Source: Eledone cirrhosa
Taxonomy: Eukaryota
Length of the DNA stretch: 64,000 nt
Direction of reading: 5' to 3'
Assembly (NCBI GenBank): GCA_964016885.1
Contig: OZ024758.1
Coordinates: 6,200,001-6,264,000 of the forward strand
Position numbers and translations under genes: made by a program
In this document: positions 42,851-50,228 of the stretch, in pieces
How the letters are laid out: each line of letters begins with the position of its first letter
Position numbering within the stretch: position 1 is the stretch's first letter
The notes under the pieces: generated by a model
Told to the model about the DNA's origin: nothing
Database searches by the model: none
What the model saw: only the letters and a program-made list of their open reading frames with translations

Positions 42851-43400
42851 AATGACCCGTGTCAAGATCGTAAATTGTGATAAGCTATATTCCAATGTTC
42901 TGGGATTTCAGACGAAAGGAATACTGTGATTATATCGAATTGAATGAATCTTCAGAATGGTTTATTATTGATAATGTGAAACCACTTATTACTGACATCA
43001 CCATTGTTCCATTACTCTAGTTCCGTTCTCTCTTTAACTCTGAGATTAATTGCATCAGTCGAGCGCTTGTTTAACCATTCCCATCTGACCAACTTACATT
43101 TGTAGCTATATAGGAAATTGAGTTCCTTAAGGAAGATATATGGTTTGTAAATGCTGAGATGATCCACGTGCTCTTCTATATTTGTTCTTAATTTATCTTT
43201 TATGTCATATTTTAATTATATATATGACCACCACACCATGTATTGGAGATAATTTTCTTTCGCTTCTAATCATCCCTCTCACACACACAAACAACTCCAT
43301 ATATATATATATATATATATATATATATATATATATATATATATATATATATATATACATATAATATAAGATCAAAAGATGGTTAAAGGAGTTCCATGTA

Positions 43401-43467
43401 TTTTATTATGCGCATTTCAAAAACAAACATCATCATGCAATAATATTTGTGTTTTCATCAGATAAAA
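43401..43467 (-). ncRNA. Type I hammerhead ribozyme (left arm)
   Basis: Reverse complement of 43576-43642. Confidence 0.8.
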
Positions 43468-43575
43468 CAGGAGAACATGATATGAAGGCTAAAAAACACT
43501 TGTGGATAGTGCAGTTTTAAATCAAAAACTGCACTATCCACAAGTGGTTTTTAGCCTTCATATCATGTTCTCCTG

Positions 43576-43642
43576 TTTTATCTGATGAAAACACAAATAT
43601 TATTGCATGATGATGTTTGTTTTTGAAATGCGCATAATAAAA
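43576..43642 (+). ncRNA. Type I hammerhead ribozyme
   Basis: ttttat-CTGATGA-aaac-acaaatattatt(gcat)gatgatgtttgt-tttt-GAAA-tgcgca-TA-ataaaa: 6-bp stem I, G-U-rich stem II, palindromic stem III atgcgcat, AUA site. Confidence 0.82.
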
Positions 43643-43844
43643 TACATGGAACTCCTTTAACCATCTTTTGATCTTATATTATGTATACTCCAGTCCTACA
43701 AACTGTAGAGTGCTTCTTATCCGATATCTGCATTGCTTTATTGTACTACAATAAAACTCACCTCCTACATATATATACATATATATATATATATATAAAA
43801 ATTATTATAAATGTAAGCTATCGCCGTATTTTGACTAAAGAAAT

Positions 43845-43943
43845 TAAAGAAATTATTTAGCCTGATAGAGGGGTTAAGAACCCTCGGAAAAATGGAAAAC
43901 GATGAGTATTGACGTACATACTCATGAGTATGTACGTCAATAC
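43845..43943. repeat. Dispersed repeat ending in a perfect 38-bp palindrome (43906-43943)
   Basis: gtattgacgtacatactca|tgagtatgtacgtcaatac; inverted homolog at ~25720-25795. Confidence 0.75.
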
Positions 43944-44312
43944 ATGGGCATGTGGTTAGTATGTCTCAGTAAAGAATCGCTGGACAGATTTTACGGGTAA
44001 AACCAGGCATCAGGAGACCCAGAGATAGACCCCCGAGCAAGATGGTTGGATAACATCCATGAGTTCGGCTTGTCTATTTTGGGAATTCATCCGGATCAGT
44101 TGGAGACGGTTGCTTCTGACAGGAGCCGTTGGGAGGAGTGTTTAAGGTCTCTGTCCCCATAACAGTAGTAGTAGTAGTAGTAGTAGTAGTAGTAGTAGTA
44201 GTAGTAGTAGTAGTAGTAGTAGTAGTAGTAGTAGAGGAGAAGAAGAAGAAGAAGAAGAAGAAGAAGAAGAAGAAGAAGAAGAAGAAGAAGAAGAAGAAGA
44301 AGACGACGACGA
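43943..44312 (+). pseudogene. RTE LINE 3' end remnant followed by (GTA)n(GAA)n
   Basis: Homologous to 37250-37460 (gagcaagatggttggataacatc, ttggagacggttgcttctgacagg). Confidence 0.8.
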
Positions 44313-45119
44313 TGGCGAAAGAATTTCTCACAAACTATATACAGTACATATCAATTGAAGCTGCAATCATTCCTTTAGTGTAGGTAGCTACGATTAAAAA
44401 AAGTCTTTAAATGCCTGAGCCGTCATAATACATTTGATCTTGAGCATTGTGCTTTTATTTTATGCATTTATGCATGCTTCTTGGATTTGAATTATGGTTT
44501 AGAATTGTCAGAATATAGTAGTTATTCCCTTGGTTTTGGAAATTCTCTACTTTGGTTTTTCCTATTCAGCATTATTCATTATTAATTGTGTCGTGTTATT
44601 GTATTTCATAGATTTGAACAAGAACATGGAGAAGTAAAACATGTGTGGCATTACACATAGAATAATTGAACTGAAAAGTGATCAAGTGTATTTCGGATGA
44701 CATGAGGGGAAAGAATACAAACCATCTCAATGACGCAAATGATAACAATGAGAGAGGTTTGCAAAAAATATTTAAATTATTTAAACTAGAACAGGAAAAC
44801 GAATTGTTCATTTGTCCATATTCAAATGGCTTTACGCACAGATGATGAGCTGCCACCTAGATTAAAAGATTAATAATCGATCTTCAATCTAATCAGCAAT
44901 GAAATTAATCATTTAGGCTTCAGTTAAATGTATAATATTAAGCATCTTGATAAAAATGTTCTCAACAATAGTTTAAAATTTAATACATTTTGTATTGCAA
45001 AGAATTAGATTATACAAAATAAATCTGCATAGTATTAATAAAAGAATAAACTGTAAATACAGTTATTGATTTATACTTTCATTTGTGATCAACTTGCTTT
45101 GTTCTATTAGTATTTTGAT

Positions 45120-45161
45120 CTTACCTGTAAAACGTTCAATCAATGTTGTTGCTATGGTAAC
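45120..45161 (-). promoter_or_regulatory. RFX X-box (GTTGCTATGGTAAC, 45148-45161) adjacent to a strong splice donor CAG|GTAAGA (intron starts 45124)
   Basis: 14-bp X-box consensus match in non-repetitive sequence, about 23 nt from the donor. Confidence 0.5.
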
Positions 45162-45575
45162 CGGGTTGAACTTAAAACTTTTAGATGTCTTTCAGGTCGA
45201 ATACTGACAAAACCAAAGACACCCCAGATCAAAATGATAAAGAATCAATCAATAAAAACTAAACACTGTATTATTTCTATTGTTTCGGTCTCTGTTCTAC
45301 AGTCATTGATCCTTAATTAAATGTCTAAATACAAAGAATATTCCTTCATTGCTAAAAAATAAATTTGCAGAATCAGTAGAGCGTCAAACAAATTGATTTG
45401 CGGCATTACGTTACAGTTCTGATTTAAAATCCAGTCGAGCTGAAATTTGCCTTTCGTCTTTCCGGAGTTGATGAGATAAAATACCAGTTAAATATTGTGG
45501 TCGATGTAATCAACTGTTCTCTCTCAAACTAGAAGCCACTGTTATAACTTTTCATTATAATAATTATTATAACAA

Positions 45576-45765
45576 GGTGGTGAATTAGCAGTATCGGTAG
45601 AGGGTCAGACGCCATGCTTTCCAATATAGAGCTACGGCCCTTGCCATTCTGAGTTCAAATCCTGCCGTGGTTAACTTTGCCTTTCATCCTTACGGGGTCG
45701 ATAAAATAAAGTACCAGTAATGCACTGGAGTATTTGGTGGTCTTGTGCTAAAAGTAGAAACAATT
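45576..45765 (+). mobile_element. SINE family A
   Basis: Consensus match. Confidence 0.9.
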
Positions 45766-47937: not shown

Positions 47938-47997
47938 ACTCCCAATCTATCTGCATATATATATATATATATATATATATGCAGATAGATTGGGAGT
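47938..47997. repeat. Perfect palindrome with (AT)n centre
   Basis: actcccaatctatctgc(at)ngcagatagattgggagt. Confidence 0.85.
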
Positions 47998-48099
47998 GGG
48001 TAACGATAAGAACTTAGCTGTCGGGCATATATATATATATATATATACATGTAGCAGATCCGCATAAACTACCACTACATACAAAGACATCATTATTAT

Positions 48100-48346
48100 A
48101 AGTACCAGTGATACACCGGGGTAATTGCTGGCCTTGTGCCTAAAGTAGAAACAATTATTATTAATAATTGTTTCTACTTTTGGCACAAGGCCAGCAATTA
48201 CCCCAGTGTGTCACTGGTACTTTATTTTATCGACCCCGTAAGGATGAAAGGCAAAGTTGACCTCGGCGGGATTTGAACCCAGAACATAAAGGGCCGTAAC
48301 TCTATGCTGCAAAGCCTGTTGCCCAACCCTCTACCGGTACGGCCAA
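48100..48346. mobile_element. SINE family A (minus, 48165-48346) with inverted copy of its own tail (48100-48157)
   Basis: Tail-to-tail palindrome around ttattattaataa. Confidence 0.85.
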
Positions 48347-48561
48347 TAATAGCATTGTTTAGTGGTTGAAAGTCAAGGTTAAAAGGACGATGTAATGGGA
48401 GACGAATGGTGAGTAACAACTGACAGTGCGATTTGATACGAAGAGCATGTTTGACTCAAACATGCTCCAGTATTCTAATCCTTATATATATATATATATA
48501 TATATTTCGTTTCTGAATTTGTTTAGCAAGATTCTTTATCTGAAATCGTGTGTTGAAACCG

Positions 48562-48634
48562 ATATTGTTATACTTTGGGAGGGTCATGTTGCCAATATTA
48601 TTGGCAACATGACCCTCCCAAAGTATAACAATAT
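48562..48634. mobile_element. Perfect palindrome (36-bp arms) of the family P3 terminus, in (TA)n
   Basis: tattggcaacatgaccctcccaaagtataacaatat is also the end of the hammerhead-bearing element at ~24804-24838. Confidence 0.85.
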
Positions 48635-48786
48635 ATATATATATATATATATATATATATGTAGGAGGTGAGTTTTATTGTAGTACAATAAAGCAATGCA
48701 GATATCGGATAAGAAGCACTCTACAGTTTGGGGGACTGGAGTATGCATAATATAAGATCAAAAGATGGTTAAAGGAGTTCAATATA

Positions 48787-48853
48787 TTTTATTATGCGCA
48801 TTTCAAAAACAAACATCATCAAACAATAATATTTGTGTTTTCATCAGATAAAA
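48787..48853 (-). ncRNA. Type I hammerhead ribozyme (P1)
   Basis: Reverse complement of 49965-50031. Confidence 0.8.
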
Positions 48854-49964
48854 CAGGAGAACATGATATGAAGGCTAAAAAAACACTTGTTGATAGTGCA
48901 GTTTTAAATCAACATATGAAAAGTGGTTTTAGATTGATGTGTGATATTGGGAAAAATATTTAGAGAGGGGGGGAGAGAAAAGGATGAAAAGGGAAGGAGA
49001 TGAGAGGGAGAGATGGGTGATAGAGAGAAAGAGATAGTTTTTATAACTGAGAGGAGATATATTTTATATAGAGGGGTTGAAAACCGTTGGAAGATACTGT
49101 ATAAATTAAAAATTTTGAAAATTAACGAAGGGAGGATATGTGCGAGGAAAAAATATATTATATTTTTAAAAATATATTATCTTTTTAATCTCAATTTCAT
49201 CCTTAATTTATTATTATTTTTTTCTCCCCATCAACGAACTCATTATTAATACATATGAATTCAATATAAAAACTTTAACTTCACATTATTTTTCTCAAAT
49301 CCTTCTACACATAAACTTTTTCTCTTTGCTAATTTTAAAATTCCTACATTTCTTCTTTTGACGTTAGAATATTCACCCACAATTATTATTTTTTTCTCTC
49401 TATCTCCATACATAATTTCCCTTCGTTATTTTTTTCTCTCTATCTCCATACATAATTTCCCTTCGTTAATTTTCAAATTCCTTTAATTTATACATTATCT
49501 TCCAACGGTTCCCAACCTCTCTATATTAAAACATTATATCTTTTTCTCAGTTATAAAAACTATCTCTTTCTCTTTATCACCCATCTCTCCCTTTCCACCT
49601 TCACTCTCATCTCCTCCCCTTTTTTTCATCCTTTCCACCCCCACCCCTCCCTAAATATAATATATTTTTTCCTCGCACATATCCTCCCTTCGTTAATTTT
49701 CAAAATTTTTAATTTATACAGTATCTTCCAACGGTTTTCAACCCCTCTATATAAAATATATCTCCTCTCAGTTATAAAAACTATCTCTTTCTCTCTATCA
49801 CCCATCTCTCCCTCTCATCTCCTTCCCTTTTCATCCTTTTCTCTCCCCCCCTCTCTAAATATTTTTCCCAATATCACACATCAATCTAAAACCACTTTTC
49901 ATATGTTGATTTAAAACTGCACTATCAACAAGTGTTTTTTTAGCCTTCATATCATGTTCTCCTG

Positions 49965-50031
49965 TTTTATCTGATGAAAACACAAATATTATTGTTTGAT
50001 GATGTTTGTTTTTGAAATGCGCATAATAAAA
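49965..50031 (+). ncRNA. Type I hammerhead ribozyme (P1)
   Basis: Same as 43576-43642 except stem II loop gttt instead of gcat. Confidence 0.82.
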
Positions 50032-50190
50032 TATATTGAACTCCTTTAACCATCTTTTGATCTTATATTATATATATATATATATATATATATATATATA
50101 TATATATGTAAAAGGTAAACAGAAATACAGTATATCGGTACAGTATATGGAAGGAATATATTAGGTTAACGATTGTATAGCAAAAAGAGA

Positions 50191-50228
50191 CTCTTAACGT
50201 TTCGGAAGCTAGTCCTTCATCAGAAGAA
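50191..50228 (-). ncRNA. Minimal type I hammerhead ribozyme (PLE-type)
   Basis: ttctt-CTGATGA-a-gga(ctagct)tcc-GAAA-cg-TT-aagag; loopless palindromic stem III acgt. Confidence 0.78.

Follow-up and report, generated by a model that had tools for sequence, protein, structure and literature searches.

A stretch of 64,000 nucleotides from the genome of Eledone cirrhosa (contig OZ024758.1 of assembly GCA_964016885.1, positions 6,200,001 to 6,264,000), referred to below as the window, was analyzed around two fold-back insertions of one repeat family, here named P1. Both insertions (locus 1 and locus 2) lie between (TA)n tracts and carry a predicted type I hammerhead ribozyme in each arm. They are probably 5'-truncated insertions of a Penelope-like element (PLE) family of retrotransposons, in which the paired 3' ends, that is, the pseudo-long terminal repeat (pLTR) regions, stand head to head in (TA)n. 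A first-pass annotation had described two insertions between (TA)n tracts that form long inverted repeats, and both were found as described. The one-sided tail, which is the most diagnostic feature of PLEs, had been overlooked there and was seen in both loci.

Architecture of the two P1 loci and their copies

Both loci were head-to-head inverted repeats (Table 1). The arms of locus 1 (43361-43518 and 43525-43682) differed by 1 mismatch over 156 nt, and the plus-strand arm extended beyond the shared part to 43768. The arms of locus 2 (48747-49165 and 49653-50071) showed no differences over 419 nt, and there it was the minus-strand arm that extended beyond the shared part, to 48661. A (TA)n tract was present at all four outer ends, the 3' ends of both arms pointed outward, and an inverted 5'-truncated copy was joined head to head in 2 of the 2 loci. 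Although 9 mismatches and 1 gap separated the two loci over 245 nt, both of their ends were identical to the base: the short arm stopped 46 nt past the predicted cut site, and the other arm was longer by a tail of 86 nt. The inner (5') ends varied, with a loop of 6 nt at locus 1 and of 487 nt at locus 2.

The fold-back junction of locus 2 contained a filler of about 14 nt that repeated the end of the neighbouring arm (a 19-nt local duplication), and loose ends of reads were recorded beside it at 49161 and 49179. The loop of locus 2 (49180-49652) was composed of degenerate tandem units, each 220-230 bp long; G made up 2% of its sense strand, and it contained no Pfam family. It was assigned to the upstream body of the untailed arm, because it had the same strand bias and because contigs and reads joined 49652 to that arm. 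No hammerhead was found in these upstream units by the descriptor search, and the approximately 790 nt upstream of the locus 2 ribozyme were non-coding. A direct partial-tandem pLTR was not seen, as no direct repeat of the hammerhead end occurred inside either locus; this feature is optional in truncated copies.

Table 1. Positions of the P1 insertions, their parts and related features in the window
Feature	Position	Strand	Remarks
Locus 1, left-hand (TA)n tract	43299..43357
Locus 1, untailed arm and loop	43361..43524	- (element sense)	6-nt loop 43519-43524 continues this arm upstream
Locus 1, predicted type I hammerhead	43399..43469	-	C3 43461; predicted cut after 43407
Locus 1, tailed arm	43525..43682	+	Part common to both arms
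Locus 1, predicted type I hammerhead	43574..43644	+	C3 43582; GCAT loop; predicted cut after 43636
Locus 1, tail	43683..43768	+	86 nt, one arm only
Locus 1, right-hand (TA)n tract	about 43769..43797
Locus 2, left-hand (TA)n tract	48631..48660		Shared with the neighbouring P4 fold-back
Locus 2, tail	48661..48746	-	86 nt
Locus 2, tailed arm	48747..49165	-	Part common to both arms
Locus 2, predicted type I hammerhead	48785..48855	-	GTTT loop; C3 48847; predicted cut after 48793
Locus 2, junction filler	49166..49179		About 14 nt; resembles adjacent arm end
Locus 2, upstream body of untailed arm	49180..49652	+
Locus 2, untailed arm	49653..50071	+
Locus 2, predicted type I hammerhead	49963..50033	+	C3 49971; predicted cut after 50025
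Locus 2, right-hand (TA)n tract	50069..50107
Minimal-type hammerhead of a different family	50195..50228	-	Outside the P1 insertion; extra A after A9, G10.1-C11.1, AACGUU
Family P2	46687..46927	untailed arm -, short tailed arm +	Between (TA)n tracts; 87-nt tail
Family P3	24859-25055, 25415-25544, 53135-53274, 53327-53525, 63683-63855		Five insertions by (TA)n
Family P4	48506-48634, 24520-24840		Head to head; tail about 56 nt

Further copies of P1 were sought in 24 listed sequencing runs, none of them of RNA. Part of the arm was contained in 20 runs and at least half of its sequence words in 5 (under three organism labels). Four runs were aligned to positions 48649-49652, and the aligned sequence amounted to 4654 contigs of X1, 5989 reads of X22, 55 contigs of X4 and 4 contigs of X7. 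X22 consists of raw Illumina reads of a reduced-representation library, the counts of which are not locus counts; the depth of contigs, likewise, does not equal copy number. X1 is possibly related to the source of the window itself and was not counted as independent support.

Many related copies of the P1 family were shown to exist by these alignments. The short 3' end was fixed at 48747-48750 in the reads: in X22, loose ends were formed at 48747 by 296 reads with an (AT)n consensus (agreement 0.84) and at 48750 by 197 reads running into (AT)n, and 1219 reads with a loose end at 48659 continued in TA-rich sequence. The summed depth was roughly 10-50-fold lower upstream of about 48950. Strand-switch joints were found elsewhere in the reads (48691/48916, 48730/49028 and 48754/48882), in two of which one side lay within the tail, and reads returning from about 49401 to 49179 (5+2+5 reads) pointed to further upstream units in other copies. 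The near-identity of the arms suggests young insertions, a result that arm-to-arm conversion or assembly polishing could give as well. A young, multi-copy family, in line with the recently active one of the first-pass annotation, was supported by the many related contigs and reads and by the near-identical arms. Exact 24-nt patterns of P1 gave 0 matches in metagenome, viral and prokaryote genome contigs.

Predicted hammerhead and the sister families

The CUGAUGA and GAAA cores, the AUA site and the palindrome AUGCGCAU in helix III were found in 4 of the 4 P1 arms, and all elements of the type I core (CUGANGA, GAAA, NUH, three stems and an open stem I) were present. From one strand of stem I through to the other, the sequence was the same at both loci apart from the stem II loop, which read GCAT at locus 1 and GTTT at locus 2. 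These points agreed with the first-pass annotation, and two of its details were corrected. Stem I, given there as 6 bp, had 8 bp including one G-U pair. The description of the motif as a minimal hammerhead did not apply either, since P1 has no extra base after A9, no G10.1-C11.1 and no short helix I, and its stem II comprises 16 positions, one of them a C x U mismatch, and starts with A10.1-U11.1. The metazoan type I hammerheads described by Cervera and de la Pena (2014, PMC4209133) have the same CUGAUGA/GAAA core and an unstable palindromic helix III suited to dimers; P1 departs both from their typical canonical form (6/4 bp) and from their minimal consensus.

The strict descriptor gave 5 hits in the window, namely the four P1 arms and a sister-family motif at 46785, versus 0 hits in 100 dinucleotide shuffles of the window from which microsatellites had been removed. 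Descriptor hits at 47636 and 29707 (-) were not counted, as their stems were weak. The first of these positions is a degenerate hammerhead-like core within a 398-bp G-poor segment between two (TA)n tracts (47488-47885, -), the similarity of which to P1 or P2 was not significant (p 0.07-0.41).

The positions that varied among copies were compared with the predicted fold for the 40 variants listed out of 124. All three in-stem variants kept the pairing of stems I and II, two variants fell in the stem II loop and none in the catalytic core. The hammerhead fold was conserved among the variants listed. The palindrome of helix III was broken by variant 48799, found only in the reduced-representation run; this variant was set aside as conservation evidence, because 1141 reads ended at 48802, probably at a restriction site.

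A second comparison was provided by the sister family P2, the untailed arm (-) of which carries its own predicted hammerhead (C3 46785, predicted cut after 46736). P2 was homologous to P1 in the tail (p=0.003) and from the ribozyme to the short end (p=0.007; 2000 shuffles each). Between P1 and P2 all 8 pairs of stem I were kept, 3 of them in changed form. In stem II, pairs 2 and 3 were changed from A-U to G-C, the mismatch at position 4 was retained and one distal pair was broken in P2, while the helix III palindrome was changed to AUAUAUAU. Judged from the aligned sequences, the hammerhead fold is kept through compensatory change in this comparison of two families only.

A predicted type I hammerhead suited to dimers was supported by the motif and by the energy model, in which the dimeric active fold had -32.7 kcal/mol versus -6.4 kcal/mol per active monomer. 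In the modeled read-through RNA of the two loci, all 71 hammerhead bases paired with the far arm and the probability of stem II was 0. The ribozymes on both strands, which had been emphasized in the first-pass annotation, were indeed seen in all arms, but they are a by-product of the inversion and, because of this burial, are predicted to have no function of their own here. The two arms of one locus cannot form a hammerhead dimer in cis.

The same general plan was found in two further families of the window. In P3, 3 of the 5 insertions were fold-backs, single-arm copies also occurred, and the tail was about 80 nt long. Each P3 insertion started inside a likely hammerhead (GAAA, a 4-bp helix III, a palindromic loop and a GUC site) with the 5' half absent, and three of them began at the same base (GTCCAG), which indicates a recurrent 5' boundary and not random truncation. 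In the longer copy of P4, a hammerhead-like motif was located at 24645 (+); its stem II has 6 bp. P3 and P4 shared the plan without significant similarity of the tails (p 0.60 for P1-P3 and 0.26 for P2-P3). A shared tail hairpin ACTC...GAGT is not claimed, as only the P1-P2 similarity was significant and the folds of the tails were weak (z -0.4 to -2.0).

Of eleven fold-backs examined by script, 7 had a one-arm tail, one more (the longer P4 copy) had such a tail as judged by eye, two were centred on a TA tract and one was tailless. Extra upstream sequence was located on the untailed arm at 4 loci and on the tailed arm at 1, and 3 were uninformative. The short ends of P1, P2, P3 and P4 carried a TA run of 3, 2, 3 and 4 nt, respectively, with a positional-frequency product of 0.0014 for the four families.

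Origin of the insertions

The PLE origin of P1 was considered very likely. Statements on published systems refer here to excerpts of the cited sources. PLE insertions are described as 5'-truncated, often with an inverted copy and with the tail at one end only (Craig 2021, PMC8557442; Arkhipova 2013, PMC3846280; PMC8969392). The endonuclease-containing (EN+) PLEs with inverted pLTRs share with P1 the 5' truncation, the head-to-head inverted copy, the one-end tail, the hammerhead in the terminal repeat and a microsatellite bias that hides target duplications (PMC8557442; PMC3846280). P1 differs from them in that no open reading frame (ORF) was found and in that its upstream body is a G-poor tandem array. 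The architecture, the one-sided tail, the hammerhead and the TA flanks thus match the published PLE signature, and the assignment to a PLE-type, (TA)n-associated family made in the first-pass annotation was retained.

Both Neptune and Naiad PLEs favour microsatellites (PMC8557442), and the Neptune clade is our best guess for P1, by analogy, on the basis of the pairing of a hammerhead with a microsatellite bias. Naiads resemble P1 in (TA)n targeting, inverted copies and the tail, and two octopus families with a (TA)n preference are listed (Craig 2021 supplement). In the excerpt they have no canonical hammerhead and are old remnants in cephalopods, whereas P1 has a full hammerhead and is young (PMC8557442). 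An assignment to Naiad was rejected in view of the complete hammerhead in 4/4 arms. Six short P1 motifs were not found in the text of the Craig 2021 supplement, which may contain few or no DNA sequences.

A biochemical parallel exists with Poseidon of the green anole (PAc), in which two internal start sites of the reverse transcriptase (RT) bound the tail; its purified protein cleaves AT-rich DNA on both strands and extends each of them (Frangieh 2024, PMC11167929). PAc also resembles P1 in having a hammerhead upstream of the tail, and differs in that P1 sits in pure (TA)n. The hammerhead of PAc is reported in the same excerpt to need protein and to be dispensable for insertion in vitro.

Several results weigh against the interpretation of P1 as a hammerhead-bearing PLE family inserted by two priming events. 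No family reached the Rfam gathering score in the window, and the 35 Rfam matches to 43340-43800 at E<=10 were hairpin-driven or due to chance, with 0 hammerhead models among them, so that the model search proposed in the first-pass annotation gave no match. The 79-nt monomer folded no better than shuffles (z -0.6 to -1.2), its minimum-energy fold differed from the active fold, and A10.1-U11.1 takes the place of the usual G-C. Pfam domains of RT or GIY-YIG were absent from the 12 read-through frames of 43358-46563 and 48661-50633. The P1 tail of 86 nt is over twice as long as the published tails of 30-40 nt (PMC8557442; PMC3846280; PMC11167929). PAc primes without target homology (PMC11167929), whereas the short ends of P1-P4 have a TA microhomology of 2-4 nt. 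One P3 copy had its extra upstream bases on the tailed arm. Both locus 2 arms shared alleles at about 5% of the X1 depth (48781 and 48823), and therefore one template, or later homogenization, fits better than two independent templates.

Since no Rfam model matched and the monomer folded no better than shuffles, the case for the ribozyme rests on the descriptor and on covariation. The missing RT and GIY-YIG domains do not amount to a failed test of the PLE origin, because their absence is expected of 5'-truncated copies. They were also absent from the 12 frames of 6597-12037 and 12386-17472. The Pfam read-through scans covered these four stretches only, and the statement of the first-pass annotation that no RT or GIY-YIG ORF is recognizable in the window holds for them, that is, for a part of the window.

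Whether P1 encodes its own protein was judged to be about even. At locus 1, a frame beginning at an ATG shortly before the tail contains no stop as far as the end of the tail. A frame free of stops crosses the tails of P1, P2 and each of the five tailed P3 arms that were translated, in the same phase of the shared GAGT motif, with a rough joint chance of 0.02, so the tail may be the start of an ORF and hence an N-terminus. No match of the P1 and P3 tail peptides to longer proteins was found, which is weak evidence, and the 3 hits of a 35-position profile built from 6 tail peptides were without exception repetitive proteins matching by chance. The normal 5' truncation and the open tail frames favour an autonomous parent, and the non-coding upstream array favours a non-autonomous family.

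The latter possibility, a dedicated non-autonomous element related to retrozymes and mobilized in trans by a PLE protein, was given slightly less than an even chance; it is compatible with the explanation favoured here and differs in autonomy only. Besides the non-coding upstream sequence of about 790 nt with its 2% G and its 220-230-bp units, more of which are seen in the reads, it is supported by the derivation of retrozymes from pLTRs (bioRxiv 10.64898/2026.07.22.740005). The retrozymes without long terminal repeats (non-LTR retrozymes) likewise have a type I hammerhead, no ORF seen and a link to PLE terminal repeats; they are, however, head-to-tail arrays with a hammerhead per unit and circular RNAs, whereas P1 occurs as inverted pairs with hammerhead-free upstream units (PMC7229834; bioRxiv 10.64898/2026.07.22.740005). 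The definition of a retrozyme, a hammerhead per tandem unit, therefore fails at the two P1 loci; a retrozyme tandem array was rejected, and the term retrozyme-like used in the first-pass annotation was dropped. Moreover, a long repetitive 3' untranslated region of an autonomous element would look alike, and the open tail frame shared by P1, P2 and P3 is as expected if the tail starts an ORF.

It was proposed that the inverted arms arose when sense RNA of a single source was primed twice, a pathway to which we assign a probability just below one half. An RT/GIY-YIG protein, supplied by a full-length copy of P1 or by a partner family elsewhere, would nick both strands of the self-complementary (TA)n. 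At one nick, reverse transcription would be primed internally, 46 nt beyond the hammerhead cut, with the aid of TA pairing of 2-4 nt; at the second nick, it would be primed 86 nt further on. The two cDNAs would stop at variable places and would be joined by microhomology or by a short templated filler. The hammerhead would be a passenger of the pLTR that cuts only as a dimer in a tandem precursor RNA, perhaps helped by protein, and it would be silent in the fold-back copies, the read-through RNA of which would form a long double-stranded hairpin. Where the tailed arm has no upstream sequence and the untailed arm no tail, neither can be a plain copy of the other, and a simple snap-back of sense-templated cDNA is therefore disfavoured.

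If a PLE origin is granted, inversion by self-priming on an antisense template is a rather unlikely alternative to two priming events. The antisense RNA would fold back at its 3' end, the new strand would run to the tail, and the template arm would be trimmed at the short end on joining the target. Such a pathway has been proposed for the Penelopes of rotifers (PMC3846280). By reasoning, the untailed arm would then carry the loop, which it does in 4 of the 5 informative loci, and both arms would share rare alleles, as at locus 2. The purified PLE protein, by contrast, works on sense RNA and, on nicked DNA, initiates at both boundaries of the tail (PMC11167929), and the junction filler of locus 2 resembles end joining and not a clean hairpin.

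A more specific form of two-fold priming, in which the 8-bp intermolecular palindromic helix III of the hammerheads pairs two template RNAs for a symmetric twin reaction, was regarded as improbable. The paired RNAs would be held in a dimeric RT-endonuclease complex and would prime both (TA)n strands at the two TA-pairing start sites. Against it, Naiads make inverted insertions without hammerheads (PMC8557442), and core mutants did not lower insertion in vitro (PMC11167929). Were it true, the hammerhead would be an RNA dimerization signal as much as a cutter, and the short, abundant and covarying families would offer a minimal system for the formation of PLE tails and inverted repeats.

The long near-perfect inverted repeats and the TA flanks could also be produced by a fold-back DNA transposon, a miniature inverted-repeat transposable element (MITE) with long terminal inverted repeats, TA insertion and a chance or passenger hammerhead. 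This explanation was considered very improbable and is already largely refuted: the two outer ends differ in length by a constant 86 nt, the inner ends are variable, single-arm copies occur in P3, the depth falls from the 3' end inward, and both the strong G strand bias and the covarying ribozyme speak against it. The identity of the locus 2 arms and the absence of a contig spanning the locus 2 fold-back junction among the contig pieces listed would suit an artefact of assembly or library preparation (fold-back chimeras at TA tracts), the least probable explanation, since the one-sided tail recurs in sister families and occupies identical bases in two loci that differ by 4%, the short end is also found in the raw Illumina reads of X22, together with further inverted joints, and the locus 1 arms differ at one base.

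The layout of the P1 insertions is itself already known for PLEs. Apparently, P1 is an undescribed young PLE-type family with an unusual hammerhead (a 16-position stem II and A10.1-U11.1). Neither P1 nor a PLE tail of 80-90 nt was described in the literature searched, and Repbase, Dfam, older papers and bioRxiv supplements may contain them. The excerpt of PMC13282606 reports 190 PLE families covering 6.83% of the genome concerned and does not mention hammerheads, and that of PMC12602865 contains nothing on structure. The new details are the 86-nt tail, the TA microhomology of 2-4 nt at the short ends and the extra upstream sequence on the untailed arm.

The way in which PLEs build tails and inverted repeats has been called unresolved (PMC11167929; PMC8557442; PMC3846280). 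The window offers several families within 64 kb, with short insertions, two fixed ends, TA microhomology and a bias as to which arm is longer, and genome-wide counts of insertions of the P1-P4 type would allow cDNA snap-back, antisense self-priming and twin priming to be told apart without laboratory experiments. If transcribed, the fold-backs would give near-perfect double-stranded RNA of 160-420 bp, a possible substrate for RNA editing or small RNAs.

Other features of the window

The minimal-type hammerhead motif at about 50195-50228 (-) lies just outside the (TA)n of locus 2. Upstream of it, within 50195-50480 (-), a degenerate stretch resembles what we take to be a GIY-YIG C-terminus; Pfam gave no hit there. 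Older fold-backs or fragments with halves of the hammerhead core (CTGATGA/GAAA) end at (TA)n at 40634-40788, 62314-62352 and 63435-63592 and possibly represent other PLE families. Inverted repeats centred on (TA)n and arranged tail to tail, not head to head, were found at 47938-48026 and 53948-54089, and two perfect 38-bp palindromes lie away from (TA)n at 43906-43943 and 40874-40911.

An intron-free ORF of 331 codons (37555-38550, -) with an N-terminal hydrophobic segment has the appearance of a type II membrane enzyme of the host; Pfam gave no family at E<=0.01. Short decayed stretches at 36422-36727 (-), about 37000-37200 (+) and 43940-44160 (+) resemble the C-termini of proteins of long interspersed nuclear elements (RTE-like), the first and the last of them those of the RT, and the last is followed by a (TAG)n run. 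A repeat resembling short interspersed nuclear elements is abundant, often in inverted pairs (42674-42788, 45584-45769, 48100-48347, 50484-50620 and many more), and forms a perfect fold-back at 48100-48222. A homogeneous tandem array of a 75-bp unit, with 18.8 copies and 97% matches, occupies 58910-60316.

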